In this document: piece after piece, positions 17,291-38,205 of the stretch
Layout: each line of letters begins with the position of its first letter
How positions within the stretch are numbered: position 1 is the first letter of the stretch
NCBI GenBank assembly: GCA_964195125.1
Contig: CAXMPL010000060.1
Coordinates: 1-38,219, forward strand
Reading direction: 5' to 3'
Length of the DNA stretch: 38,219 nt
Source of the DNA: an uncultured Kiloniellales bacterium
Lineage (GTDB): Bacteria; Actinomycetota; Acidimicrobiia; Spongiisociales; UBA5794
The notes under the pieces: generated by a model
Database searches by the model: none
Told to the model about the DNA's origin: nothing
Seen by the model: the letters and a program-made list of their open reading frames with translations, nothing else
Translations under genes and position numbers: made by a program

Positions 17291-18478
17291 CTACGACTCA
17301 GGGATCGCCACGATTCGGTGCAGCTCGCCTTCTTGGGTCGCGACCAGCACCTCGCCTTCGGCGTCGACTCCGAACGTCGTGATGTGCCCGAGTCGGCCGA
17401 GGTCGGCCTCCCAGTCGTACTCGGCGATGATCTCGCTTCCGTCGAATATCAACGAGCGGACCCATCCGACGCAGTAGTCCCCATAGAAGTATTGGCCCTC
17501 CAGTGCCGGGAGCTGGCGGCCCCGGTACACGGGACCGCCGACGACGGCGCACGCCCGCTGGTGGGGGATGATGAACGTCGGCGCCACCAGACCCTCCGCT
17601 TCGCAATCTTCCGCCTCGTAGCAGGCATCCCCCTCGCGGATCGCCCATCCGAAGTTGGAACCCGCCGCATCCATAGGTACTACGTTGATTTCCTCATACT
17701 CGTATTGGCCCACATCGGCGATATAGACGAAGCCGGCATCGAAGGTGAACCGCCACGGGTTCCTGAGCCCGTATGCCCACAGCTCGCGCGCCGAGCCTTC
17801 GGCGTCGACGAACGGGTTGTCCGGAGGCACGGCGTAAGGAACGCCGGCGTCGACGTCGAGACGCACGATCGCCCCGAGCAGGCTGGCGGTGTTCTGGCCG
17901 TGGCCGTCGGGATCCCCGATCCCGCCGCCGTCGCCGAGGCTGATCCACAGATAGCCGTCGGGGCCAAAAGCCATCCCGCCACCCTGGTGATATATGTGCG
18001 GCTGTTCGACGGTGAGGATCGGTGTGGCCGAGTCGATGATGACCTCATCCCCGTCCAGTGCGTAGGCAGCGACCTGGACATCGAACGACTCGCCGGTATA
18101 GAGCACGAACATGCGGTCGCCTTCGGTATCGAATGTGAACCCGAGCAGGCCCTGTTCCGAGGTCGTGCTGAACACGATGTCCCGGAGATCGAAGAAAGGA
18201 ACGATCGCGTCACCATCGATGAGCACGATCCGACCGAGCCGCTCGGCGACGTACACCCGGTCGTCACCAGCACGGTTGGCCAGGGCGACCGGTTCCTGGA
18301 GGGCGTCGGTGATGCGCTCGAGCCGGAGGTGCGGCACCTGGGTTGGCACGGTGGCCGTGGGCGCTTGCGCCTCGATCGGCGTGGTTGTCCCCAGGCCGGC
18401 CTGCTCCAGATTCGACGGCGACGCGCTACATCCCGCAGCGACGAGCGCAGCACCGACCAAAATCGCAGCCAGCCTCAT
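17291..18478 (-). CDS. PQQ-dependent (soluble glucose/sorbosone type) sugar dehydrogenase beta-propeller lipoprotein, copy 1
   Basis: Start reset to MRLAAILVGAALVAAGCS (lipobox) at 18478. Family blocks GLLGFTF, HQGGGMAFGPDGYLWISLGDGG, GLRNPWRFTFD, ADVGQ..YEEIN and NFGWAIREG. Confidence 0.85.
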   Translation of the reverse strand: MRLAAILVGAALVAAGCSASPSNLEQAGLGTTTPIEAQAPTATVPTQVPHLRLERITDALQEPVALANRAGDDRVYVAERLGRIVLIDGDAIVPFFDLRDIVFSTTSEQGLLGFTFDTEGDRMFVLYTGESFDVQVAAYALDGDEVIIDSATPILTVEQPHIYHQGGGMAFGPDGYLWISLGDGGGIGDPDGHGQNTASLLGAIVRLDVDAGVPYAVPPDNPFVDAEGSARELWAYGLRNPWRFTFDAGFVYIADVGQYEYEEINVVPMDAAGSNFGWAIREGDACYEAEDCEAEGLVAPTFIIPHQRACAVVGGPVYRGRQLPALEGQYFYGDYCVGWVRSLIFDGSEIIAEYDWEADLGRLGHITTFGVDAEGEVLVATQEGELHRIVAIPES

Positions 18479-18525
18479 CACCCGGACGCTAGAGGGGCAT
18501 TTGTCATATATGGGAGACTGGGACG

Positions 18526-18669
18526 ATGCCGTACGTGGAAGCGAACCAGCCGAAGTTTCACGACCTGGAAAGCGGGGACAGCCCGGTAGCGCGGTTCGTC
18601 CACGGGGTTCCCTTCGATGCGACGATGTGGAGCGAACAGCTCGACGGCCCGGCCGCCGCCGCGCTCTGA
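18526..18669 (+). pseudogene. 47-aa N-terminal remnant of an alpha/beta-hydrolase (haloalkane-dehalogenase-like) gene
   Basis: Hand translation gives MPYVEANQPKFHDLESGDSPVARFVHGVPFDATMWSEQLDGPAAAAL*. This matches the x-H-x-x-E-x-G-x-x-P-V-x-F-x-HG-x-P-x5-W N-terminal pattern of ~290-aa alpha/beta hydrolases. Its TGA overlaps the ATG of the next gene (TGATG). Confidence 0.4.
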
Positions 18670-19874
18670 TGAGACGAATCAGCGGTCTGGTGGCGGCGGC
18701 GGCATTGATAGCGGCTGCCTGTAGCCCGGAGGCGACGCCGACAACGCCTCCCTCGACGTCTGCACCAACCACGACAACGTCGGAAGGGCAGACCCCGGTC
18801 GGCTCGACCGAACCGCAGACATCGTCGACAACGACAGCCACGGAGACCACGATTTCGATCGCAGACACCGTGCTCGCCCTGGAGACGGTGGCGTCCGGGT
18901 TCGCTCGACCGGTGCTTGCCATCGCGTCGGGTGGCCGGCTCTTCGTCGTCGACCAACCGGGGCAGATCTGGGTGATCGATGAGGCGGACCCAGAAGTCTT
19001 CCTCGACATCCGTGACCGGGTGTTGTTCGGCGGGGAGCGGGGGCTGCTTGGTCTGGCTTTCCACCCCGAACATGATGACCTGCTCTATGTGAACTACACC
19101 GGCGACTCCGGGTCCACCATCGTGGCCGAATACCGGTTCGCCGTCGACGGGGCCGATCCGACGTCGGAGCGCACCGTGCTGCGAGTCGACCAGCCTGCCG
19201 GCAACCACAACGGCGGGTTGCTCGCCTTCGGCCCTGAAGGGAAGCTTTGGATCGGCATGGGTGACGGAGGCGGCTCCGACGACCGCTTCGGCCAGGCGCA
19301 GCGGGGAGACACGCTGCTTGGCGCGATGTTGCGCATCGAAGTCGGGCCTGAGGTGACTCCGTACGGAGTTGCCGGCGACTACGGGTTCGCGGCGGCTGAG
19401 GTGTGGGCCATCGGTCTGCGCAACCCATGGCGGTACGCCTTCGATGGCCGCGATCTGTGGATCGCTGATGTCGGTCAGAATGCGGTCGAAGAGATCAATC
19501 GGGTCTCGGTGGACGATCGCGGTCTGAATTTCGGGTGGCCGATCCATGAGGGGACTGATTGCTTCCGCCGAAGCCCAGCGTGCGGTGGCGACGAGTTCAC
19601 CTTGCCCGTCCATGAGTACCGGCACCCCGGTGGGTGTTCCATCACCGGGGGCTACGTGTATCGGGGCGAGGCCATCCCGCAGCTCAGCGGCCACTACTTT
19701 TTCTCCGATTTCTGTTCCGGGTTCATTCGCTCGATCGCGCCATCCGGCGAAGTATTCGACTGGACCGAACAGACCGACACCGTCGACGGTGTGACCTCGT
19801 TCGGTGTGGATGCCGACGGTGAGCTTCTCGTGGTCTCTTCGAGCGGCGTTGTGTACCGGGTGGTCGAGCGATGA
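18669..19874 (+). CDS. PQQ-dependent sugar dehydrogenase beta-propeller lipoprotein, copy 2
   Basis: Start reset to MRRISGLVAAAALIAAACS (lipobox), followed by a Thr/Ser/Pro linker. Family blocks GLLGLAFHP, HNGGLLAFGPEGKLWIGMGDGG, GLRNPWRYAFD, ADVGQNAVEEIN and NFGWPIHEG. Confidence 0.85.
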   Translation: MRRISGLVAAAALIAAACSPEATPTTPPSTSAPTTTTSEGQTPVGSTEPQTSSTTTATETTISIADTVLALETVASGFARPVLAIASGGRLFVVDQPGQIWVIDEADPEVFLDIRDRVLFGGERGLLGLAFHPEHDDLLYVNYTGDSGSTIVAEYRFAVDGADPTSERTVLRVDQPAGNHNGGLLAFGPEGKLWIGMGDGGGSDDRFGQAQRGDTLLGAMLRIEVGPEVTPYGVAGDYGFAAAEVWAIGLRNPWRYAFDGRDLWIADVGQNAVEEINRVSVDDRGLNFGWPIHEGTDCFRRSPACGGDEFTLPVHEYRHPGGCSITGGYVYRGEAIPQLSGHYFFSDFCSGFIRSIAPSGEVFDWTEQTDTVDGVTSFGVDADGELLVVSSSGVVYRVVER

Positions 19875-25890: not shown

Positions 25891-27608
25891 CGGAGAACAG
25901 TGTCGGTCGTGTCCTGGGAACCCAGCACACGACGACAAGCGAGTTTCGCGTCGTGCTCGACGACGACGAGTACCTGCAACTCGATGACCTCGTCGTGGTC
26001 CGCACCCAGGTTCCCAAGTACGGAGAGGTGCGCACCTACGGCATCGTCACCGAGGCGGAAGCCGTCTACGAGGGAGCGCAGTTCGAATCCGATACGCACC
26101 GCATCGCTGCTGAGGGAATCCTCCCGGGCGCCAAGGTGCGATCGGCGAGGGTGCAGGTCACTCGGGTGGACCCTGAGCTGTGGGTTTCGGCCGATCCTGG
26201 CGAGGTCGCCGAACGTGCCCGCGGCGCCGAGCGCGACAAGGCATTGTACGTCGACGAGATGGGCAGGCCGCTGCCAGCCGGCTTCGGCCGCGACGGGGAA
26301 CCGATCGCCATCGACCTCGACTTCTTCGACGGCCGCAAGGGCGGCCACATGTCGATCTCGGGGATCTCCGGGGTCGCAACCAAAACATCGTTTGCCCTGT
26401 TCTTCCTCAGGCTGCTGTCGGCGAGGCCGGACGTGGTCGGCGTTGGCGCCGCCAACCTGCGAATCCTCGTGTTCAACGTCAAGGGCGAGGATCTCTTGTG
26501 GCTGGACAAACCCAACAACGCGTTCACCGCAGACGATGCCGCCAAATGGGAGCAGCTCGGCGTCGAACCTGCGCCGTTCCCTTCCGTGTCGTTCTGGGCG
26601 CCACCACGGCCGCGAAGCGGGGACGTGCTGGTGCCGGACACCGGTGGGCGGCAGCAGGGCGTCGATGCGTTTGCATGGACGCCGCGCGAGTTCGTCGACG
26701 ACGGTCTGCTGCGGTTCCTGTTCACGGACGCAGGCGACTTCCGCAACCAGCTCTCGTTCATCGAGGAGAGAGTGCGATCACAGCTCCAGCGTTTCGCAAT
26801 CGATGTCGACGGTCTGCCGGGAGCCCTGGTGCTCCGCGACCCTGCCGATGTTGACGACCCGCGACAACCCGTGGTCGCCCATCGTGGTGAGCGCGTGATC
26901 AGCGATCTGGGGACGATGATCGATGCCATCGCCGAATACGTCGACCCAGAGGAGAGGGAGCCGGATCAGCGATGGACGGGAAGGGTGCAGGGGGGCACGG
27001 TCTCCGCGTTCCTCCGCAGGCTCCACGCCGCCGAGCAACGGCTCGGGCACATGATCAGGGCAGGCGACAGCAGGCGCATCGACAGGGCGGCCGCTCAGGT
27101 GACCGTGGTCGGGATCCAGTCGCTCCATGATCTCGGCCAGCGATTCGTGGTCGGCGCCATGCTGGCGGAGACCTTCGAGGAGAAGGAGCACACCGGCCAG
27201 CGCCTCCCACTGTCGGTCGTCGTGCTCGATGAGCTGAACAAATACGCACCGAGAGATGGGTCGAGCCCGCTCAAGGCGATGCTGGTCGATATAGCCCAGC
27301 GGGGGAGGAGCCTCGGCGTGCTTCTGGTCGGAGCGCAGCAGACCGCGTCGAGGGTCGCCCCCGAAGTCATGGAAAACGCTGCCATCAAGGTCGCCGGCCG
27401 CCTCGACGCCGCCGAGGCCGAGCGCCCGGAGTACGGCTGGATGCTGCCGTCGACGCGAGCCAGGGCGCGGCTGTTCAAACCGGGGACGATGGTGCTGTCG
27501 CAGCCGTCGATCCCGGTGCCGATCGTCCTCCAATTTCCCTTCCCACCATGGGCGACCCGCAAGGAGGAGGTCGACACAACGAAGGTCGACCCGTTCGACG
27601 GGCTGTGA
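25887..27608 (+). CDS. herA: HerA-like FtsK/HerA-superfamily ATPase (DUF87-type)
   Basis: 573 aa. N-terminal beta-barrel-like segment (GRVLGT..EFRVVL..LDDLVVV..YGIVTE). P-loop-like ISGISGVATKTS. Walker B VVVLDELNKYAP. Downstream GRSLGVLLVGAQQ. Confidence 0.75.
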   Translation: MTENSVGRVLGTQHTTTSEFRVVLDDDEYLQLDDLVVVRTQVPKYGEVRTYGIVTEAEAVYEGAQFESDTHRIAAEGILPGAKVRSARVQVTRVDPELWVSADPGEVAERARGAERDKALYVDEMGRPLPAGFGRDGEPIAIDLDFFDGRKGGHMSISGISGVATKTSFALFFLRLLSARPDVVGVGAANLRILVFNVKGEDLLWLDKPNNAFTADDAAKWEQLGVEPAPFPSVSFWAPPRPRSGDVLVPDTGGRQQGVDAFAWTPREFVDDGLLRFLFTDAGDFRNQLSFIEERVRSQLQRFAIDVDGLPGALVLRDPADVDDPRQPVVAHRGERVISDLGTMIDAIAEYVDPEEREPDQRWTGRVQGGTVSAFLRRLHAAEQRLGHMIRAGDSRRIDRAAAQVTVVGIQSLHDLGQRFVVGAMLAETFEEKEHTGQRLPLSVVVLDELNKYAPRDGSSPLKAMLVDIAQRGRSLGVLLVGAQQTASRVAPEVMENAAIKVAGRLDAAEAERPEYGWMLPSTRARARLFKPGTMVLSQPSIPVPIVLQFPFPPWATRKEEVDTTKVDPFDGL

Positions 27609-28774
27609 GGGTCCTCCACACGTCGGATTGGCACGTCGGAAAGCGGATCGGACGCTACGACCGGTCGGACGAGTACCGGGACGTCATCGACGAGGTGGTC
27701 GGGATCGCCGAGGACGAGACTGTCGATCTGGTGCTCCATTCGGGCGATCTGTTCGATCGGCCGTTGCCTCCAATCGACGCGCTCAACATTGCCTTCGATG
27801 GCCTGGTTGCGCTCAGCGATGGGGGCGAGCGACCGGTGGTTGTCATTGCAGGGAACCACGATTCACCAGGGTTCTTCGATGCGCTCGCTCCGTTTCTGCG
27901 AACGGTCAACGTGCACCTGGTCGGCGCCATCAAACGACCGGACGACGGTGGTGTGCTCGAGCTCGACACGGCTGCGGGACCCGCCGTGGTATCGGCGTTT
28001 CCCTTCCTCAGAGAGGGACGCAGCTTCGAGGTGTGGGAACCGCCGGAAGAGCACTACAAGAAATATGCCGACCGGCTGCGCTCCATCTCCGAGGCCTACA
28101 GCGCCCATGCCGCTGCGCTTGCCGGCACCGATGCGGTGACCTTCCTCGTTGCCCACTTCCTGGTTGGGGGAGCCAAGGTGCACGGCCACGGCGCACCCCG
28201 CGGGGAACGCGAGCTCCACATGGGCGAAGCGTATGCCGCCACTGCAGAGGTCATCCCTCCTGGGCCGCAATACGTCGCCATGGGTCATATCCACGCCCCC
28301 CAACCGGTCCCAGGAGCCAAAGTGCCTGCTCAGTACGCCGGGTCCTTGCTCGAGCTGGACTTCGGCGAGGCCGGCGAGGAGAAGCGGGTGGTGGTGGTCG
28401 ATGTCGAGCCCGGCCTGCCCGCCGCGGTGCGATCGGTGCCGCTTGGGCGCGGACGCCGTCTGCTGCGGCCGCGCGGACCCTGGGACGAGATTCTCGGCAT
28501 GGACGGGGTCCACGACTCATACCTCGATCTCACCGTCGAGACCGCGGGGCCGGACCCTGGTCTTGCCGAACGTGCCTTCGACGAGTTCGACTACCTGGTC
28601 AACGTCCGCCCTGACTACCCGAGGGTGGAGGCGCCGCGGCCCGCGACCGAGTATCGAACCCTGACCGAGCAGTACTCCGACTACTACGCAGCAACCTACG
28701 AAACAGAGGCGCCTGAGGACCTGATCGAAGCGTTCACTTCGGTGCTGGAGGAGGTAGTCGGTGCGTCCGGTTGA
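27605..28774 (+). CDS. sbcD: Mre11/SbcD-family nuclease
   Basis: GTG 27605 overlaps the herA stop (GTGA). Phosphoesterase motifs HTSDWHVG, HSGDLFD, GNHD and GHIH. Confidence 0.88.
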   Translation: MRVLHTSDWHVGKRIGRYDRSDEYRDVIDEVVGIAEDETVDLVLHSGDLFDRPLPPIDALNIAFDGLVALSDGGERPVVVIAGNHDSPGFFDALAPFLRTVNVHLVGAIKRPDDGGVLELDTAAGPAVVSAFPFLREGRSFEVWEPPEEHYKKYADRLRSISEAYSAHAAALAGTDAVTFLVAHFLVGGAKVHGHGAPRGERELHMGEAYAATAEVIPPGPQYVAMGHIHAPQPVPGAKVPAQYAGSLLELDFGEAGEEKRVVVVDVEPGLPAAVRSVPLGRGRRLLRPRGPWDEILGMDGVHDSYLDLTVETAGPDPGLAERAFDEFDYLVNVRPDYPRVEAPRPATEYRTLTEQYSDYYAATYETEAPEDLIEAFTSVLEEVVGASG

Positions 28775-31268
28775 GCTCAGGCTGAGGAACTTCCGATCCT
28801 ACTTTGGCGACGAAGCATCCTTTGACTTTCGGGAGCGAAGGCTCATCGGCATCGTCGGCCCGATCGGCAGCGGAAAGTCGAGCATCCTGGATGCGATCGC
28901 GTTCGCCCTCTACGGTCGCACCGCCTCCGTCGGCAAGGGCACCAAAGCGCTGATCCATCAGCGCGCCGAGCACGGCACGGTTGCCTTCCGCTTCGACATC
29001 GACGGAGACCTGTGGGAGGCGCAGCGGATGTTGCGCAAGAAGGGGGCGGGCGACCATGCCCTCTATCACCTGAAGGACGACAGCGAAGATGCGGAGAAGC
29101 TGGAGCAGGTTGTCGGCGAGGCCGAGGTCAACGCCAGGATCGTTGAGCTGCTCGGCCTCGATTTCGACGCCTTCGGTCGTTCGGTGCTGCTCGCTCAGGG
29201 TCGGTTCGCCGAGTTCCTCACCGCACGGCCCGCCGAACGTGACAAGGTGCTCAAGGGTGTCTTCGGACTCGACCGTATCGACCGGATGCGAGCGGTGGCG
29301 AAGGAGCGCGCCGGGGAGGCCGAGATCGAGGCGGAGAAGGCGGAGGTCGCGGTCCGGCACCTGGTTGAGCTCGAAACCTCCGCCGCGACGCGCAAGGAGG
29401 CCCTGGGAAAGGACTTGGAGCGCCTGGGGAAACTCGAAAAGATCGAACCTCTGGCCCGCCAGATGGCTGCAGAGATCGATAACTCCCGCACCGAGTTGGA
29501 GGCGGCCGAACTGCGGCTCGCCGCTCTCCAAAAACTGATTGCTTCCTTTCCGGAAGAGGAACAGCTTGGCGCCACCATCAGCGTCGCTCACACCTCTGCG
29601 GAGCAACGGGACAACTCGGCGTTGACCCTCGAGCGGGCCCGTGACCAGATCAAGGCTGCCGAGGCTCGTTCCGCCAAGGCTGCGGAAATGCGTGGCACCC
29701 TCGATGCGGTCACGGCGTTGGTCGCCACCAGCATGGAGCGGAAGACGGCGGTCGGCGAGGCGCGGGAGGCACTCACCAGGGGAGAAGAGCGGGCACAGCA
29801 GGCCACCGCCGAGGTAGGCGGCCAGACCGACCGGGTCGCCCTCGCCAAGCGCGCGATGGCCGCCGCCGCCGGTCACGTCGGCGACCGGTCGACCGCCCTC
29901 GCCGCTGCGGAGGCTGCCTATCACGACGCCTCCCACGCTGACATGGCCGCAACCCTGCGTCGAGATCTCGTCGACGGGGCGATATGCCCGGTGTGTGAGC
30001 AGGCTATCCAATCCATACCAGAGGTCGCCGACGTCACCGATGTCGAGGCCGCGCTGTCCCAGATGCAGTCGGCAAAGGACGAACGCGACCAGGCCGAGGC
30101 CGCCAACACCAAGGCATCGGCGGCGCTGGAATCGGCGAGAACGGCCCTCGACGAGGCAACCCGGCGCGTTGCCGAGTCGGGTGAAGCCGTCACCGAGCTG
30201 AAGGACGGCCTAGACCAGGCTGCGGCCGCCCTCGACTCAACCAACAACAACCTCGTCGCCCTTGTCGGATCAGACGACGTTGACGCCGCCATCGAGTTGC
30301 TCCGGAACGAACAGGGGGCGGCAGCAGCCGGCCTCGACGCTGCGGCCACGAAGCGAGATCGTGCCAGGAGCGATCACGACGCCGCAATCGAGGCGGAACA
30401 GACGGCTGGAAAACATCTCGCCGATCTCCGGGTTGCGCTGTCGGGAATCGCCACCCAGCTTGACGATGCCCCTGCGGTTGCCGACGACCCCGAGGCGATC
30501 GCAACCGCAGCATTGACCCTCCGGGCCATGCTGGACCAGGCACTGCACGACACGACAAAACGGAGCGATCAGGCATCGAAGGTCGGCATCGACCACGAGC
30601 GGGAGCTGGCAGCCCTCGTCGAGAAGGCAGATGTCACCGGGACGTTTGACGAGGCGTTGGCCGCGCTGCGATCGAGGGTGGAGGTGATGAGCGACGAGAT
30701 CGCTCGTGTCGATGACCAGTTGGAGGGGAAAGCGGATCGGATCGCCCTCAGAGATGGTCACATCGCGACGATGAAAACCAATCGATCTCTCGCCGCCGAC
30801 CTCACCGATGCCCGGTTTGTGCGGTACCTCCTCGACGATGAGCGTCGCCGGCTGGCCGAGCTCGGCAGCGAGCACTTTCAGCTTCTCACCAGCGGCCGTT
30901 ACCGCTTCACCGAAGATGGGGCCTTCGATATCGTGGATCTCACCGCGGCCGATGCGGTTCGCAAAGCCGACAGCCTGTCGGGCGGAGAGACCTTTCTTGC
31001 TTCGCTTGGGCTGGCACTCGCCATGGCCGAGATCGTGGCTCGGGGTGGTGGCCGCCTCGACGCCTTCTTCCTGGACGAGGGATTCGGCACCCTCGACCCC
31101 GAACATCTCGATCTGGCCATGGAGGGCATCGAGTCGCTGGTCAGCGACGACGGGAACCGGCTGGTCGTCGTGGTCAGCCACGTGCCGGAGCTGCGGCACC
31201 GAGTGGAGGATCTGATCGAGCTTGACCGGAACCCCACGACCGGCGACACCAGGGTGCTGAGCGCCTGA
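28761..31268 (+). CDS. sbcC: Rad50/SbcC-family SMC-like ATPase with zinc hook
   Basis: 835 aa. Walker A GPIGSGKSS, a long Ala/Glu-rich coiled coil, a central CPVC hook, signature LSGGE and Walker B FFLDEGFGTLD. Overlaps sbcD by 14 nt. Confidence 0.9.
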   Translation: MRPVELRLRNFRSYFGDEASFDFRERRLIGIVGPIGSGKSSILDAIAFALYGRTASVGKGTKALIHQRAEHGTVAFRFDIDGDLWEAQRMLRKKGAGDHALYHLKDDSEDAEKLEQVVGEAEVNARIVELLGLDFDAFGRSVLLAQGRFAEFLTARPAERDKVLKGVFGLDRIDRMRAVAKERAGEAEIEAEKAEVAVRHLVELETSAATRKEALGKDLERLGKLEKIEPLARQMAAEIDNSRTELEAAELRLAALQKLIASFPEEEQLGATISVAHTSAEQRDNSALTLERARDQIKAAEARSAKAAEMRGTLDAVTALVATSMERKTAVGEAREALTRGEERAQQATAEVGGQTDRVALAKRAMAAAAGHVGDRSTALAAAEAAYHDASHADMAATLRRDLVDGAICPVCEQAIQSIPEVADVTDVEAALSQMQSAKDERDQAEAANTKASAALESARTALDEATRRVAESGEAVTELKDGLDQAAAALDSTNNNLVALVGSDDVDAAIELLRNEQGAAAAGLDAAATKRDRARSDHDAAIEAEQTAGKHLADLRVALSGIATQLDDAPAVADDPEAIATAALTLRAMLDQALHDTTKRSDQASKVGIDHERELAALVEKADVTGTFDEALAALRSRVEVMSDEIARVDDQLEGKADRIALRDGHIATMKTNRSLAADLTDARFVRYLLDDERRRLAELGSEHFQLLTSGRYRFTEDGAFDIVDLTAADAVRKADSLSGGETFLASLGLALAMAEIVARGGGRLDAFFLDEGFGTLDPEHLDLAMEGIESLVSDDGNRLVVVVSHVPELRHRVEDLIELDRNPTTGDTRVLSA

Positions 31269-32530: not shown

Positions 32531-33226
32531 TCAATCGGTGTAGATCAGCTCGAGCGTTCCCATCGGTCGGCACAGGTACTCGATCCGATCTCCCGGAATC
32601 GGCCATACCAGCGGGATCACAGACCCGGCCATGATCACCTGCCCCGCGCGCAGGTGGTGGCCCGCCGCAGCCAGCCAATCGGCGGTGTGCAGTGTGAGGT
32701 CGACGAGATTACCGGTCAACGCCTCAGGATCGGCGGTGGCACCGACCTCGGCCCCGTTGCAGAGCACGCGAACATCGATGCCGCTGACATCCCCGCCGGC
32801 GCGGTTGGAGTCGGCCGGGGCGAGGACGACATGCCGCTGAAAGATGTTGCCGCCGACAATGGCCTCGACGTCGTCGAGGGGACCACCCAGATCGGCCAGC
32901 TCGATCGCCGGCCCGAGCGCGCTGATGGCCGCCGCCGCTTCGGCCCGGGTTGCGCCAGGGCCCAGATCGCGGCCCAGATGGATGGCGATCTCGGGCTCGA
33001 AAGCCGGCTTGGTCCACCCATCCAGTGAGACAGTGCTCCCGGAGTCAAGGACCGACACCACAAACCCCACCAGTGGGGCTTCGATACCCAGGCGTTCCAT
33101 CGCCGCCGGGGAGCCGAATCCGATTTTCCACCCGGCAAGCGTCCCCCCCGCGTCCAATCGTTCCTGCAGCAGCCGACCTTGGGCACGGATGCCTGCCGTT
33201 ACCGCCGCATCATCCCATACCGCCAT
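32531..33226 (-). CDS. 2-keto-4-pentenoate hydratase / 4-oxalocrotonate decarboxylase family (FAH-fold) protein
   Basis: 231 aa. GWKIGFGSP..., EPEIAIHLGRDL and VIMAGSV resemble MhpD/XylJ-family motifs. Lies 22 nt downstream of the PPDK-like gene. Confidence 0.65.
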   Translation of the reverse strand: MAVWDDAAVTAGIRAQGRLLQERLDAGGTLAGWKIGFGSPAAMERLGIEAPLVGFVVSVLDSGSTVSLDGWTKPAFEPEIAIHLGRDLGPGATRAEAAAAISALGPAIELADLGGPLDDVEAIVGGNIFQRHVVLAPADSNRAGGDVSGIDVRVLCNGAEVGATADPEALTGNLVDLTLHTADWLAAAGHHLRAGQVIMAGSVIPLVWPIPGDRIEYLCRPMGTLELIYTD

Positions 33227-33248
33227 GGGCGTTCTCCCTTCGTCCCGC

Positions 33249-35390
33249 TCAGGCCCGACCGGCCGAGACCTCGTCCTCGCGGGTGCGGCCGGCGAGGAGG
33301 ATCAGGTCCTCGTGGAGCTCGAACCAGATGCTGTGATAGCTGTCGACTCTGGGAGAGGCGATATAGGCATTATCTCCGTCTGCGACCAGGCCCGCGGCGC
33401 GCTCCAGGCGCTCTAAGTAGTGGCCGAGTCGAGAGAGCCCGTCGCCAAGCGGCCGGAGCCATGCCTCAGCATCCTGGTGGACGGAGGCGAACTCTACGAG
33501 CACCGACCCGTCGTACGCTGCATCCGAGTGGTCGTTGAGTACCGGCTCGCCGTCGACCTCGCGCATCTGCCAAGCGGTGACGGTCTCCTTCATCCGGCCG
33601 TCGATCGGAAGGAAGTCGTCGAGGGCTTTCGAGGCATTCTCCACCCCCCAGTCCTCGCGATCGGCGGCGATCATCTCGGTGCCGACGGCTTTCCCGTCCG
33701 CGGTCAATTGGAACATGGCGCCGGTGAGCTCGGTCAGGCCATCCGCGGTCATCCGATCAAGAATGGCAGCCGTCTCCTCCTCCGTCTTCAGCAGCGCAGG
33801 GGCAAGCCCGTCGGGGGTGGCAAAGCCCTTGATCATCAGAGCCCGCACGGCCATATCGCCCGGCCGTCGGTCGTCCCCCGTGATGGTTTCGTCGTGTTCT
33901 GCCATGGTCGTATTCCTCTCCTTTGACCCACCCACGCTCACTCCGAGCTCCTGCGCCCAAGACCGAAGGATCGCCGCCTCGGGGACTATGGTCTCGCTCC
34001 CTGCAACCACGCCGACGAAGACTTTGCCGCGATCACCGTCGATGGTGAGCATGTCCCCGACGGCGAGGGTGTGATCGCCGATCGAGACGGTGCCGTCGCG
34101 GACTCGCACCGCTTCGGCTCCGACCACCGCCGGGATTCCCCACCCTCGCGCAACGACGGCCGCGTGGCTGGCAAGACCGCCAGTCGAGGTCAAGACCCCG
34201 GCGGCCTTTGCCATGCCGTGCACATCGTTGGGCGATGTCTCCCGGCGGACGAGGATGACACGCCGACCCGCTTCGGCCTTTTCGACGACGGCTTCCGGTC
34301 TGGTGGCGATCTCACCCGACGCTATCCCGGGAGAAGCCCCGAGGCCGGTCGCCGCCGGCTTGGCATCGGAAAACTGGTCAACAATCGTCAGCGGTGGGTC
34401 CTCCAGGAGGGCAGACACCCGTTCGATTGCCGCGGCGCGAGTGAGCGGAAAGCCTACGTCCTCGGCCATCTCAACCGCGATCCGGAGCGCCGCCTGTGGG
34501 CTGCGTTTGGCGATCCTCGTTTGCAACATCCACAGCCGGCCCTCTTCGATGGTGAACTCGATGTCGCAGACATCGGCGTAATGGCGCTCGAGCAGATCGG
34601 CGTATCCGCGCAGCTCCTCGGCTTCCTCCGGCATCCGCTCGTCGAGTGCGGCGATGCGTTCCGTTTGGTGCGTCCCGGCGACCACGTCCTCGCCCTGCGC
34701 CTGGAACATGACGTCGCCGTAGAGGCTCGCCTCTCCGGTGGCGGGGTTTCTGGTGAAGATCACACCGGTTGCCGAGTCGGGGCCCCGGTTCCCGAAGACC
34801 ATCGCCTGGACCGTGACCGCCGTCCCCAGGTCGTCGTTGATGTCCTCGTGAGCGCGGTAGCTGCGAGCCCGATCGCTGTTCCAGGAGCGAAAGACAGCCT
34901 CGATTGCGCCCCTGAGCTGTTGCCAGGGATCATCCGGAACCAGGTCGACGCCGACGATGTCTCTGTACATCGTCGATAAGCGGTTGCGACAGGCATCGAC
35001 GAAGGCGTCGTCCCCCGATAGCGCAGCCAGCCCCTCCGCCGTCGCGTCGTTGAGCCCGAGGTTCAAGATCGTGTCCATCATTCCCGGCATCGAGACCGGC
35101 GCCCCCGAGCGGACGCTCACCAGCAGCGGGTTTGTGGCGTCACCGAACCTCCATCCGACCGCCGCCTCGAGGAGACCAACGTGCTGACGGATCTCTTCGT
35201 CGAGCCCGTCGGGCCAGCCCTCGGCCAGATACGTGCGACACGCCGCGGTCGAGACCGTGAAGCCGGGAGGCACGGGGAGGTCAAGCTCGTTGGCCATGAC
35301 ACCGAGGTTGGCCGCCTTGCCACCGACGATCGCCGCAACCTCGGAGAGGGACGTGTCGTGAGCGTGATCAAGGGCGTAAACGTAGCTCAT
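33249..35390 (-). CDS. Pyruvate,phosphate-dikinase-like protein: ATP-grasp nucleotide domain plus swivel phospho-His domain, no PEP/pyruvate TIM barrel, unrelated ~220-aa C-terminal module
   Basis: aa 1-~480 are collinear with remembered Clostridium symbiosum PPDK: GGKAANLG, LLVSVRSGAPVSMPGMMDTILNLGLND, FRSWNSDRA, GTAVTVQAMVFGN, NPATGE, QGEDVVAG, FTIEEGRLWMLQTR, ILVRRETSPNDVHGM and TSTGGLASHAAVVARGWG (His409). After ~aa 485 the sequence has no resemblance to the TIM barrel. Confidence 0.85.
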   Translation of the reverse strand: MSYVYALDHAHDTSLSEVAAIVGGKAANLGVMANELDLPVPPGFTVSTAACRTYLAEGWPDGLDEEIRQHVGLLEAAVGWRFGDATNPLLVSVRSGAPVSMPGMMDTILNLGLNDATAEGLAALSGDDAFVDACRNRLSTMYRDIVGVDLVPDDPWQQLRGAIEAVFRSWNSDRARSYRAHEDINDDLGTAVTVQAMVFGNRGPDSATGVIFTRNPATGEASLYGDVMFQAQGEDVVAGTHQTERIAALDERMPEEAEELRGYADLLERHYADVCDIEFTIEEGRLWMLQTRIAKRSPQAALRIAVEMAEDVGFPLTRAAAIERVSALLEDPPLTIVDQFSDAKPAATGLGASPGIASGEIATRPEAVVEKAEAGRRVILVRRETSPNDVHGMAKAAGVLTSTGGLASHAAVVARGWGIPAVVGAEAVRVRDGTVSIGDHTLAVGDMLTIDGDRGKVFVGVVAGSETIVPEAAILRSWAQELGVSVGGSKERNTTMAEHDETITGDDRRPGDMAVRALMIKGFATPDGLAPALLKTEEETAAILDRMTADGLTELTGAMFQLTADGKAVGTEMIAADREDWGVENASKALDDFLPIDGRMKETVTAWQMREVDGEPVLNDHSDAAYDGSVLVEFASVHQDAEAWLRPLGDGLSRLGHYLERLERAAGLVADGDNAYIASPRVDSYHSIWFELHEDLILLAGRTREDEVSAGRA

Positions 35391-35524
35391 GACTCAGAGT
35401 ATTCCAGTAGCTGGTCGCAGAGCACCAGCGTGGCCGCGATCCCGGGTCGGTCATAGCCGCAGATATCATCTGAATTGAGCTATCTCTCGAGGAACGCTGG
35501 AGGCGATTGGGCGGTGATTCGGAG

Positions 35525-35554
35525 TTGACGGCGGGCCGTTCGATTACGTATCAT
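35525..35554 (+). promoter_or_regulatory. Candidate sigma-70-type promoter (TTGACG, 18 nt spacer, TATCAT) reading toward 35750
   Basis: Read directly in the most AT-rich stretch of the window, in the divergent 359-bp intergenic region. Confidence 0.35.
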
Positions 35555-35562
35555 CGATTATC

Positions 35563-35579
35563 GACTATCTATGATAGTC
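35563..35579. promoter_or_regulatory. Perfect palindrome GACTATC-TAT-GATAGTC, candidate operator for the downstream GntR regulator
   Basis: 7-bp arms with a 3-nt spacer, placed 9 nt after the candidate -10. GntR/FadR-family operators are typically short AT-rich palindromes. Confidence 0.35.
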
Positions 35580-35749
35580 AACCGAGAGGTAGCTCTGGAA
35601 TGATGCGCTTTTCTCACTGCGACCCGGGGTGGGAGTCATTCTCGCCCTCCTTGTCGTAGTCGCCAATTGGATCGAGCGCCATTCGGCGCGTCGAGGGCAG
35701 AGCTCTTCCGGGATGAGCCAGTGGCAGGGCACGAAGGAGGACGGAATTC

Positions 35750-37483
35750 ATGACCGATGCGATCATCAAACAAGACCTCGGCGACGACACATTCCCCGTC
35801 GAGTGGGCCTCCGAGGTAGAGCAAGGACTCTTTTGGGTCTACGACGATCTGCACTGCCCGCAGCCGTTATCTCCGATGTACTTCGACATCGGTGGCTGGT
35901 GGCTGACGTGTGACCACATGTTCCGGCGTTTCGGCACGCCGTTTGCGTCCGATTGGGTCGCCAAGAACGTCAACGGGTACCTGTACACCGCGGCCATCCC
36001 GGCGGATCCGGAGTTCAGGCTGGAGGCGATGGAGTACGGCAACGTGTACTTCCCGCGGGTACCGAGCACCGACCCGGAGTACGCCGCCAAGATCGGCAAC
36101 TACCTGAACGCCGTGCTTCCCACGTACGGGCTCAACTTCGCCAACTGGTGGCGGGAGCGCCTTGTTCCCGAGATGGACCGCAACCTGAAGTACCTCGAGT
36201 CGAAGATCGATATCTGGGACGAGATCCCGCTCATGGAGTGGGCCACGATCCTTGAGGATGCGATCGACATCCACGATCGCCATTGGAAGATCCACTGGAT
36301 GCTCAACTTCGCCCAACTGTCGGCGACGCTCAATCTCGCGGCCGTCACCGAAGAGGTGCGCGGCGACGTCGATGAGGCGCTGCTCGGGCGCCTGCAGAAC
36401 TCGGCGGCCGACCGGAACTGGGATTCGCTCGAAATGCTGTGGACGATGAAGGAAGAGGCCAAGAACAGCGATGTGCTCTCAGCGGCTTTCGACAACGACA
36501 ACGGTGCCGAGATCCTTGAGGCGCTGGGGAGCACCCCGGAGGGCCAGACGTTCCTCGATGAGCGAGTGACGGCCTGGCAGCGCGAATTCGGCTGGCATGC
36601 AGTGTGGAGCCATGAGTTCATCTTCCCCAGCCGGTTCGAAGAAGCGGGTCCGGTCCTCGACGTGCTCAAGGGGTACATCGAGGCGGACTACGACTACCCA
36701 TCAGCGGTGAAGGGACTGGCCGACGACATCGCGGCTGCGGCGGCGGAGCTGCTCGACGGCCTCGAGGGTGAAGACCTGGAGAAGCTGAAGGCAGCCAGCG
36801 ACATCAACCTGAAGATGGCGCCGCTGACCCCCGACCATCACTTCTACATCGATCAGGGCACCAACGCCCACCTGCGGGTGGTGCTGATCTGCATCGGTCG
36901 CAAGCTGGTCCAGGAGGGTGTGCTCGACGAGGAGGACGATGTCATCTTCCTGACCTACAACGAGCTGCGCTATTTGCTCGGCGATCTGGAGAACTTCGAT
37001 GCGCGGAGCATCGTCAAGGAGCGGCGCGCCGAGCGCGCTGAGCAGGAGGCGATCCGGCCACGCGACTGGATCGGGACCGCAACCGAATCCCAGCTCGAGT
37101 TCCCGTATCTGGGCCTGTGGGGTTTCCCGGAGAAGCTCTACATGGAACAGGAAGACGGCGCCGTCGTGACCGGCATCGCAGCCTCGCCAGGCGTGATCGA
37201 GGGCACGGCCAAAGTCGTGTTGTCGACGGAAGAGTTCGACCAGGTGAGCCCTGGCGACATCCTTGTCTGTCAGATGACCAACCCGGCGTGGACACCGCTG
37301 TTTAGTGTGATCAGCGGGATTGTCACCGATGCCGGCGGCACGGTATCTCACCCCGCGGTGATGGCCCGCGAGTTCGGCATCCCTGCGGTGATCGGTTGCT
37401 CGGTAGCGACGGTTCAGATCAAGACCGGCGACCGGTTGCGGGTCAACGGCTCGGCGGGAACCGTCGAGATTCTCGCCGGCTGA
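35750..37483 (+). CDS. PEP-utilising-enzyme mobile (swivel His) domain protein with large unknown N-terminal domain (PpsA / rifampin-phosphotransferase-like, no ATP-grasp)
   Basis: 577 aa with AAGGAGG 8 nt upstream of the ATG. The C-terminal ~100 aa (GIAASPGVIEGTAKVV..GDILVCQMTNPAWTPLF..IVTDAGGTVSHPAVMAREFGIPAVIG) are a swivel phospho-His domain. The N-terminal ~450 aa begin FPVEW...W.YDDLHCPQPLSPMY. Confidence 0.8.
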   Translation: MTDAIIKQDLGDDTFPVEWASEVEQGLFWVYDDLHCPQPLSPMYFDIGGWWLTCDHMFRRFGTPFASDWVAKNVNGYLYTAAIPADPEFRLEAMEYGNVYFPRVPSTDPEYAAKIGNYLNAVLPTYGLNFANWWRERLVPEMDRNLKYLESKIDIWDEIPLMEWATILEDAIDIHDRHWKIHWMLNFAQLSATLNLAAVTEEVRGDVDEALLGRLQNSAADRNWDSLEMLWTMKEEAKNSDVLSAAFDNDNGAEILEALGSTPEGQTFLDERVTAWQREFGWHAVWSHEFIFPSRFEEAGPVLDVLKGYIEADYDYPSAVKGLADDIAAAAAELLDGLEGEDLEKLKAASDINLKMAPLTPDHHFYIDQGTNAHLRVVLICIGRKLVQEGVLDEEDDVIFLTYNELRYLLGDLENFDARSIVKERRAERAEQEAIRPRDWIGTATESQLEFPYLGLWGFPEKLYMEQEDGAVVTGIAASPGVIEGTAKVVLSTEEFDQVSPGDILVCQMTNPAWTPLFSVISGIVTDAGGTVSHPAVMAREFGIPAVIGCSVATVQIKTGDRLRVNGSAGTVEILAG

Positions 37484-38205
37484 TGACGAGCGACTCCACG
37501 ATCGAGCCGTCTGGGGCGCTCGTCGAGCGCACTGTGCTCAGCGATCAGGTGAAGGACCGCCTGCTCGAACGAATCGTGAGCGGTGAGTTGGAGCCCGGGT
37601 CTCGCATCGTCGAGACCCGGGTCGCTCGCGAGTTCGGCATCAGCCAGGCACCGGTGCGCGAAGCCTTGAGATCGCTGGCAAGCCTTGGGCTCGTTGAGAT
37701 GCGTCCCCATCGGGGAGCTTGGGTTCGAAAGCCTGATCAGGACGAGCTGGTCGAAGCGGTCCAGGTGCGTGGTGTCCTCGAGGCGTTTGCTGCCGAGCAG
37801 GCGGCGGCGACGATCTCAGACGAGGTCATCCTCGACCTGGAGCGATTGCTCGACGAGATGCTCGACCTTGCTGCCGAAGGCGACGCCCTCACCCAGGCTC
37901 ACAAGAACGCAGAGTTCCACGCCCTGGTGGTATCGGCGGCGGGGAACGCGATGCTCGAACGAACCTGGAAGCTGCTTGAGCCGTTCAGCCAGACCTACCT
38001 CACCTCGTCCGCGCCCGGGGTCGATCTGATGTGGCTGGCGAAGCGGCACCAGGGAATCGTCGATGCTCTAAGGGCTCACGACCCGGAAGCCGCTTCGGTG
38101 GTGATGCGCCAGCACCTGGAGCAGGCTGCAGAGATCACGAGGAGGCTGGCGCAGGAAGACGAGCACGCTTTGAAGGCGACGGCTGAACATGACCGACCCA
38201 GATGA
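37483..38205 (+). CDS. GntR-family transcriptional regulator, FadR/FCD subfamily
   Basis: Start reset to ATG 37483 (TGATG overlap with the upstream stop). The winged HTH is LSDQVKDRLLERIVSGELEPGSRIVETRVAREFGISQAPVREALRSL. The C-terminal domain is all-helical and FCD-like. ATGA at 38202 suggests a further coupled gene leaving the window. Confidence 0.88.
   Translation: MTSDSTIEPSGALVERTVLSDQVKDRLLERIVSGELEPGSRIVETRVAREFGISQAPVREALRSLASLGLVEMRPHRGAWVRKPDQDELVEAVQVRGVLEAFAAEQAAATISDEVILDLERLLDEMLDLAAEGDALTQAHKNAEFHALVVSAAGNAMLERTWKLLEPFSQTYLTSSAPGVDLMWLAKRHQGIVDALRAHDPEAASVVMRQHLEQAAEITRRLAQEDEHALKATAEHDRPR

Follow-up and report, generated by a model that had tools for sequence, protein, structure and literature searches.

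Layout of the locus

The window, that is, the whole stretch of DNA analysed here, is the complete 38,219-bp contig CAXMPL010000060.1 from an uncultured member of the Acidimicrobiia. Near its 3' end two genes are transcribed divergently from an intergenic region of 359 bp. The minus-strand gene encodes a protein of 713 amino acids (aa) resembling pyruvate phosphate dikinase (PPDK), and the plus-strand gene encodes a 577-aa phosphoenolpyruvate (PEP)-utilizing protein and is followed by the gene of a FadR-type GntR regulator (Table 1). We suggest with moderate confidence that the locus encodes a split small-molecule dikinase, in which the beta subunit consisting only of an ATP-grasp domain has been replaced by a truncated PPDK similar to VadK (Rv1127c) of Mycobacterium tuberculosis, fused to a partner that usually is a separate protein. 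This is an uncharacterised form of an enzyme kind that is already known, not a categorically new one; it is real, conserved and widespread.

The general layout had been described in a first-pass annotation made from the sequence alone, and most of it holds. The minus-strand protein combines the Pfam domains PPDK_N and PEP-utilizers, that is, an ATP-grasp and a swivel-histidine domain, and the profile search found the PEP-utilizers_C TIM barrel in neither of the two proteins. The second swivel-histidine domain is the C-terminal PEP-utilizers domain of the 577-aa protein (PF00391, aa 500-570). The divergent region is AT-richer, with 57.4% GC against 64.9% in the window. The 577-aa gene overlaps the GntR gene by 1 nt (TGATG at 37483), and a hydratase-like gene of the FAA_hydrolase family starts 22 nt 3' of the 713-aa gene. 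However, the further gene proposed to begin with the ATGA at 38202 was dropped, as the homologous bases are intergenic in the closest related locus (L006), where the next gene lies ~120 nt on.

Table 1. Features of the dikinase locus, in coordinates of the window
Feature	Position	Strand	Basis or remark
FAA_hydrolase/MhpD-like gene	32531-33226	minus	Pfam + NCBIfam scores far under family cutoffs
713-aa ORF, PPDK-like	33249-35390	minus	ORF call + Pfam
C-terminal domain (aa ~496-713), winged helix + helical bundle	33252..33905	minus	AlphaFold2 model
PPDK-type ATP-grasp (aa ~15-345) + swivel (Pfam aa 377-455)	33906..35390	minus	PPDK_N + PEP-utilizers
His409 codon, predicted catalytic swivel His, GGLASH409AAVVARG	34164..34166	minus	alignment to 1ggo
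Conserved regulatory core	35510..35610	.	near-invariant in L005/L006, GC 50.5%
Promoter-like TTGACG-18-TATCAT	35525-35554	plus	scan: 1 site against 0.3 expected
Perfect palindrome GACTATC-TAT-GATAGTC, candidate GntR operator	35563-35579
577-aa ORF, PEP-utilizing	35750-37483	plus	ORF call + Pfam
RPH/HpeH-like helical substrate-binding domain (aa ~1-465), then C-terminal swivel phosphohistidine domain	35750..37483	plus
His534 codon, predicted phosphocarrier, motif T526-D-A-G-G-T-V-S-H534	37349..37351	plus
GntR/FCD (FadR-type) regulator gene	37483-38205	plus	Pfam GntR + FCD

The two dikinase proteins

Only aa 4-481 of the 713-aa protein are similar to solved PPDKs (~45% identity). The NCBIfam model of truncated PPDKs, NF004531, is passed marginally (485.9 bits against a cutoff of 456), and the model of the full-length enzyme, TIGR01828, is failed (517.6 bits against 843). 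Alignment to the C. symbiosum PPDK (1ggo) shows that the residues of the ATP/Pi half-reaction are kept, namely K25, R94, D276/E278, Q290/R292 and H409. The position of the regulatory threonine of PPDK is occupied by Ala407. Of the 46 PPDK-type swivel motifs in the fetched loci, all keep the histidine and 41 read GGLASHAAVVAR. Judged by sequence, the protein belongs, marginally, to the VadK/NF004531 family, in another context and fused to a partner domain.

The 577-aa protein aligns end to end with the NCBIfam PRK08296 models, scoring 169.4 bits against a cutoff of 578. The NCBIfam model of rifampin phosphotransferase (RPH), NF041857, gives 131 bits against a cutoff of 999. In database records the N-domain is assigned to PF27448 (Rph_4th). 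An AlphaFold2 model of the protein, built from 47 sequences (pLDDT 91, pTM 0.91), superposes over its whole length on the RPH structures 5fbu/5fbt (Foldseek TMq 0.67, E 5e-20 to about 1e-19). PPDK, PEP synthase and Enzyme I match the model at the swivel domain only. The first-pass annotation had described ~450 aa at the N-terminus as an unknown domain, and had held that a known substrate domain in either protein would tell against its proposal. An RPH-type domain is exactly what was found. With this substrate-binding fold, the 577-aa protein is an alpha-type subunit like HpeH, CreH and PpsA; the model places it in the RPH/HpeH superfamily, in a clade of its own.

The predicted phosphocarrier, His534, is invariant in both alignments that were made (A1 and A2) and is kept in every orthologue of the related loci. 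The segment from T526 to H534 fits the T/SxxGGxxxH motif described for HpeH (PMC12167813). An HpeH/AcvA-like protein encoded on a Rhizobium plasmid passes the PRK08296 cutoff with 772 bits. Its gene adjoins an ATP-grasp gene, biotin-carboxylase genes and the gene of an HAD phosphatase. It is about 25-34% identical to the 577-aa protein and to the relative of the latter in T. roseum.

Conservation of the gene neighbourhood

Orthologues of the 577-aa protein give more than 4,400 database matches. The GTDB genome scan was done with alignment A2, as the wide alignment A1 has no stretch conserved enough for it, and yielded at least 570 relatives, confirmed within the first 600 pattern matches. The best 80 of these, all of them from uncultured genomes, show 61-82% identity. 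Most belong to Acidimicrobiia/Actinomycetota and Chloroflexota (Limnocylindria), and a few to Dormibacterota, Acidobacteriota and Proteobacteria.

The neighbourhood was analysed in 39 loci whose flanks span 9 kb or more on either side of the 577-aa orthologue. A PPDK-like gene occurs within 10 kb in 29 of these, in 28 cases with the C-terminal domain, and thus the association of the two genes seen in the window is conserved. The PPDK-like gene is divergent, tandem upstream or downstream of the hydroxylase genes. The latter encode the subunits of an XDH-family molybdenum hydroxylase, with the 2Fe-2S subunit present in all 39 loci, the FAD subunit in 38 and the molybdenum cofactor subunit in 37. 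This hydroxylase is the true conserved partner of the kinase pair. The GntR gene lies directly 3' of the 577-aa orthologue in 33 loci. Other neighbouring genes encode a 293-aa protein with no family assignment (28 loci), an MBL-fold protein (26), SDR (22), a cyclase-family protein (16), Zn-ADH (15) and UPF0261 (8). In the closest relatives (L005-L007, 94-96% identical) the order is the divergent PPDK-like gene, 577 aa, GntR, in some cases the 293-aa gene, XDH subunits, cyclase, Zn-ADH and MFS. By this order, the window stops just before the hydroxylase genes.

Some of the loci have a different ATP module. In 4 of the 39 loci an HpeI-type gene encoding only an ATP-grasp domain replaces the PPDK-like gene, and no locus has both. 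Seven loci (L013, L015, L016, L023, L025, L030 and L035) lack a PPDK-like gene and have an ATP-grasp-only gene directly downstream. Their alpha subunits are 66-73% identical to that of the window, and their HpeI/PpsB-type genes are 47-51% identical to that of T. roseum DSM 5159; in this distant variant of the locus a 48%-identical alpha subunit likewise is paired with an ATP-grasp-only gene and no PPDK-like gene occurs. No other ATP-grasp gene was found within 10 kb in the PPDK-type loci. Of all the evidence, this mutual exclusion speaks most strongly for the PPDK-like protein as supplier of the ATP-side function.

The first-pass annotation had drawn a hint at the substrate from the hydratase and from a neighbouring "racemase". 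The latter is actually a family-III CoA-transferase. The hydratase gene is probably co-transcribed with the 713-aa gene in the window. However, hydratase genes were found in none of the 39 loci and CoA-transferase genes in one, so both were rejected as pathway members; they are not conserved components of the system. Thus, what stands of the ATP-dependent histidine-relay system proposed there is a split phosphohistidine small-molecule kinase under a local GntR, backed by homology, predicted fold and neighbourhood, and the substrate clue falls.

The C-terminal domain of the 713-aa protein

The last ~215 aa of the 713-aa protein form a conserved domain that is absent from the first-pass annotation. 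The search yielded 717 homologues, and the AlphaFold2 model has a pLDDT of ~96 at residues 30-229. The invariant motifs are NDH and SPxxDSYHxxWFELHED. The winged-helix region is poorly conserved, and the invariant residues are concentrated in the helical part. No Pfam family covers the domain. No PDB fold matches it as a whole below E 0.02, whereas the winged helix alone matches MarR/MntR folds, and so we can only infer the role of the domain.

In several cultured bacteria this domain is a separate protein. It is homologous to the product of a 201-aa gene directly 3' of truncated PPDK genes in M. avium and other Mycobacterium. On an M. avium plasmid the stand-alone homologue is 31.5% identical to it (E 1e-28), and at least ten further plasmids carry such a gene beside a truncated PPDK. 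The order in Diaphorobacter is DUF7065, PEP-utilizing protein (572 aa), 206 aa, PPDK (506 aa), and the 206-aa protein shares 34% identity with the C-terminal domain (E 1e-28). The order in chromosomal Mycobacterium is PPDK (542 aa), 201 aa, acyl-CoA dehydrogenase, SDR, DUF7065, Rph_4th/PEP-utilizers protein (542 aa). In R. opacus B4 the plasmid pROB02 (L092:155-2536) encodes a 793-aa "PEP-utilizing enzyme" with an N-terminal swivel at aa 57-108 and a relative of the C-terminal domain at aa ~606-790. Its gene lies ~7 kb from a truncated PPDK gene (570 aa), in a cluster with P450, ferredoxin, reductase, ADH and ALDH genes. Here the same module is built differently. The patterns of fusion and adjacency argue for one working unit of truncated PPDKs, ~200-aa domain and Rph_4th/PEP-utilizers proteins.

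An additional 869-aa full RPH-like protein (PPDK_N, Rph_4th, PEP-utilizers) was observed in chromosomal Mycobacterium (L094/L095:49-13457), in the same region as the truncated PPDK (542 aa), its 201-aa partner, DUF7065 and the split Rph_4th/PEP-utilizers protein (542 aa). From this gene content, mycobacterial VadK-type proteins may have RPH-like partners. M. tuberculosis Rv2047c presumably also bears such a C-terminal region. A 205-aa gene that follows the ATP-grasp gene of T. roseum was considered as a candidate homologue of the domain and rejected; it shows no similarity and belongs to DUF4202.

The regulator and the divergent intergenic region

The central block of the intergenic region (Table 1) is near-invariant in L005 and L006, and in L005 the intergenic flanks around it have diverged. 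The conserved palindrome block fits an operator of the co-transcribed GntR, in line with the segment 35520-35600 that the first-pass annotation had chosen as a target for an electrophoretic mobility shift assay. To judge by the 1-nt overlap, translation of the GntR gene is coupled to that of the 577-aa gene. The regulator is 98% identical to that of L006. It differs by a 2-nt insertion near the 3' end of the gene, which shifts the frame and adds ~7 C-terminal residues. The contig ends 14 nt past the stop codon, and the insertion may be genuine or an error of the assembly at this end.

A different observation concerns the two arms of the divergon. Between L005 and the window the 577-aa proteins are 94% identical and the PPDK-like proteins 74%, with differing intergenic flanks. 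One arm seems to have recombined or been replaced.

Proposed mechanism and alternative explanations

The kept catalytic residues and the biochemistry of VadK suggest that the 713-aa protein would bind ATP in its PPDK-type ATP-grasp and phosphorylate its own His409. The phosphoryl group would then reach His534 of the 577-aa protein, either by a direct visit of the latter to the ATP-grasp domain or by a relay from His409 to His534. By homology with HpeH, PpsA and RPH, phosphorylated His534 would swing to the RPH-like helical domain and phosphorylate the hydroxyl of a small (hetero)aromatic compound; the mechanism of HpeHI has been published (PMC12167813). By analogy with the 3-hydroxypyridine cluster of Ensifer, the product may be passed to the three-subunit XDH-family hydroxylase encoded after GntR in the relatives. 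The winged-helix/helical domain may be a tightly bound accessory or docking module, and the FadR-type GntR would control the divergent promoters via the palindrome.

Several points weigh against this scheme. The published description of VadK is that of an enzyme-binding regulatory kinase and not of a dikinase subunit (PMC13400623). Ensifer adhaerens HP1 gave 2,5-dihydroxypyridine only and no phosphorylated intermediate (10.1101/2020.01.08.898148). The contig ends before the hydroxylase genes, which therefore are not in the window itself, and in 6 of the 39 loci no ATP module of either type lies within 10 kb. The C-terminal domain opens with a winged helix, and its homologues are labelled "MarR family", which could mean DNA binding. 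We know of no precedent for histidine-to-histidine transfer between two swivel domains. Finally, His409 is strictly conserved, though it would be redundant if the 713-aa protein merely lent its ATP-grasp, and thus the simple picture of an HpeI replacement is incomplete.

One alternative is that the 713-aa protein is a regulatory histidine kinase like VadK, or a winged-helix regulator controlled by phosphorylation, the 577-aa protein receiving its phosphoryl group from an ATP-grasp encoded elsewhere. Such a role would need the conserved His409, and it agrees with the pass of the VadK-type model NF004531, with the MarR/MntR-like fold and "MarR family" labels of the region that opens the C-terminal domain, and with the reported interaction of VadK with methylcitrate-cycle enzymes (PMC13400623). 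However, PPDK-like and HpeI-type genes exclude each other beside close 577-aa orthologues, PPDK-type loci have no second ATP-grasp gene within 10 kb, the invariant residues of the C-terminal domain avoid the poorly conserved winged helix for the helical part, and the loci already have a dedicated GntR. We regard this explanation as unlikely.

It is still less probable that the two proteins act on the molybdenum hydroxylase itself, phosphorylating or activating a subunit or cofactor and not the substrate. The near-universal linkage to XDH-family genes would be explained, as would the requirement of Ensifer HP1 for orf9 and orf10 with no phospho-intermediate detected (10.1101/2020.01.08.898148). 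On the other hand, the 577-aa protein keeps the entire small-molecule-binding domain of the RPH/HpeH type, all characterised relatives phosphorylate small molecules (PMC12167813, PMC4844700), and Diaphorobacter, Mycobacterium and Rhodococcus have the same three-part module but no XDH genes with it. We give very little credence to the suggestion that the 713-aa protein is half of a PPDK or PEP synthase whose TIM barrel is a separate protein (e.g. PF09370), its linkage to the 577-aa gene being coincidental. Some relatives do have UPF0261 and PEP_hydrolase-like TIM-barrel genes directly upstream of their 577-aa orthologue. However, PF09370 was observed in 4 of the 39 loci, neither the window nor its closest relatives have it, its fold differs from that of PEP-utilizers_C, and its UPF0261 partner itself belongs to a family of ATP-dependent aromatic kinases (PMC12624787). 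The separate barrel was thus rejected as the "missing" third domain of PPDK.

A stronger version of the split-dikinase reading is a phosphorelay similar to the phosphotransferase system, from ATP to His409, His534 and the substrate, with the product being the obligatory primed substrate of the XDH-family hydroxylase. We regard this version as doubtful. If it is true, a "phosphorylate-then-hydroxylate" route would be widespread among uncultured Acidimicrobiia and Chloroflexota. It would also suggest that the members of the VadK family, among them the virulence factor of M. tuberculosis, generally serve RPH-like partners as ATP modules.

Three published observations, the two-component phenolic dikinases, VadK and the need for "PPDK" and "PEP-utilizing" genes in 3-hydroxypyridine hydroxylation, seem to be facets of one modular system. 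VadK is needed for the virulence of M. tuberculosis, and, if the split-dikinase reading is correct, the Rph_4th/PEP-utilizers proteins would be a concrete class of candidate partners for VadK-type proteins. The ~200-aa domain, fused or stand-alone, would be explained as a part of the complex, and there would be a testable reason why some molybdenum hydroxylases need a kinase. As the cluster is common across uncultured genomes, it probably handles an abundant environmental compound.

Other genes of the window and of the related loci

A protein of 285-293 aa is encoded between the GntR and hydroxylase genes (e.g. L006:10468-11349) in 43 of the 59 loci whose sequence downstream of the 577-aa gene covers at least 6 kb. 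It was found in 22 of the 29 PPDK-type clusters and in none of the four ATP-grasp-type clusters. It has no Pfam or NCBIfam family, with only a weak match to PEPCK_ATP. The hypothesis that it is a relative of DUF7065, which precedes PEP-utilizing genes in Diaphorobacter and Mycobacterium, was rejected (hhalign probability 0.3%).

UPF0261 (Tm-1-like, MarK-family) genes lie directly upstream of the 577-aa orthologue in L002:7880-9969, L059, L061, L087 and L088:6487-8590, and occur also in L001:6413-7663, L011, L017, L020 and L029. The pair of UPF0261 and the PF09370 TIM barrel is directly upstream of the orthologue in L002-L004, L059, L061, L087 and T. roseum. The members of this pair are 62-80% identical, being more conserved than the dikinase genes. 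UPF0261 proteins have recently been shown to be ATP-dependent aromatic kinases, MarK (PMC12624787). Clusters with UPF0261 hold two different kinase systems.

A substrate of the vitamin B6 type, with the MBL-fold protein as 4-pyridoxolactonase and the SDR as pyridoxal dehydrogenase, was considered and dropped; the MBL-fold protein scores 34 bits against a cutoff of 325, and by molecule names no 4-pyridoxolactonase is among its PDB sequence matches. A match on a Rubrobacter plasmid turned out to be an ordinary full-length PPDK and was discarded as a relative.

Two further gene pairs were observed in the window. One is a divergent pair of GSDH-family genes (PQQ-type glucose/sorbosone dehydrogenase-like) at 17291-19874, whose maximal ORFs overlap by ~900 nt on opposite strands. 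Their Pfam domains (17323-18301, minus strand; 18918-19842, plus strand) do not overlap, and thus the true starts of both genes are probably internal. The other pair, SbcD-like (Metallophos) and SbcC-like (AAA_23, SbcC Walker B), at 27548-31268, separates the dikinase locus from upstream housekeeping genes. The latter include VanW/PASTA, PIG-L, dynamin-like GTPases, MscS, ALDH, PfkB and nucleoside hydrolase. The PIG-L gene encodes a mycothiol-type deacetylase, which fits Actinomycetota.

Comparison with known systems

The first-pass annotation had named phenylphosphate synthase and RPH as characterised relatives; HpeHI, CreHI and AcvAB, VadK and the 3hpd cluster of Ensifer are additional to these. 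It had stated that no characterised relative combines one ATP-grasp with two swivel-histidine domains. This is supported by the comparison, as the beta subunits of PpsAB, CreHI, HpeHI and AcvAB consist of the ATP-grasp only (PMC12167813, PMC9618137).

VadK is the type member of the NF004531 family of truncated PPDKs. It autophosphorylates His422 with ATP/Mg, and co-purifies with its operonic partner Rv1126c so tightly that 2 M NaCl is needed to part them (PMC13400623). His409 is the equivalent of His422. The two proteins share the ATP-grasp and the swivel histidine, the lack of a TIM barrel, the pass of NF004531 and the catalytic and ATP-binding residues. The ~200-aa partner that mycobacteria encode beside truncated PPDKs is fused in the window protein, and from mycobacterial synteny we infer that the C-terminal domain is the equivalent of Rv1126c. 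The contexts differ. VadK is linked to the methylcitrate cycle, and no prp genes were found in the annotated parts of the window or among the called genes of L001-L007 and L088-L095. The gene in the window is linked to an RPH-like PEP-utilizing protein, which is not discussed in the VadK study.

The 3hpd cluster of Ensifer adhaerens HP1 encodes the molybdenum hydroxylase HpdA1-4, a "PPDK" (orf9), a "PEP-utilizing protein" (orf10) and a GntR (orf7). The hydroxylase genes alone are inactive, and orf9 and orf10 restore HpdA activity and are genetically required; their role was left unresolved by the authors (10.1101/2020.01.08.898148). The likeness is one of gene inventory, an XDH-family hydroxylase with GntR, "PPDK" and "PEP-utilizing" genes, and by this analogy the cluster would be the closest system-level precedent. 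The hydroxylase was seen with window-type genes in the relatives only, beyond the end of this contig. No separate SRPBCC subunit (HpdA3) and no genes of the maleamate pathway (hpdBCDE) were found in the Pfam content of L001-L007, and the 293-aa neighbour has no SRPBCC match. The related loci instead hold the 293-aa protein and the cyclase-family, Zn-ADH, MBL-fold and SDR proteins.

RPH resembles the system in structure, as the model of the 577-aa protein superposes on its rifampin-binding and swivel domains, and probably in chemistry, the phosphoryl group passing from ATP to histidine and further to a hydroxyl of the substrate (PMC4844700). The model of HpeH likewise matches RPH (PMC12167813). 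However, RPH is a single polypeptide with its own ATP-grasp of the PEP-synthase type and one swivel, whereas the system in the window is split.

The two-component phenolic dikinases HpeHI (Rhodococcus), AcvAB (Sphingobium), CreHI (Corynebacterium) and PpsAB (Thauera) have alpha subunits with an RPH-type domain and a C-terminal T/SxxGGxxxH swivel, bind ATP by a separate protein and are encoded in catabolic clusters. Their phosphorylation of a phenolic substrate is AMP-forming and needs both components. Moreover, close orthologues of the alpha subunit from the window pair with an HpeI-type ATP-grasp in other loci. The differences are on the ATP side and in the context. The beta subunits of these systems are stand-alone PEP-synthase-like proteins of ~320-360 aa with no swivel, whereas the partner in the window has 713 aa, a PPDK-type ATP module, its own swivel histidine and an extra domain. 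The window-type context contains a molybdenum hydroxylase and not a biotin carboxylase, P450 or UbiD carboxylase. As the alpha subunit falls under the cutoff of PRK08296 and the beta subunit belongs to another type, the system is not filed as a member of the two-component dikinase family. In its way of working, it most resembles PpsAB, CreHI, HpeHI and AcvAB, together with RPH.

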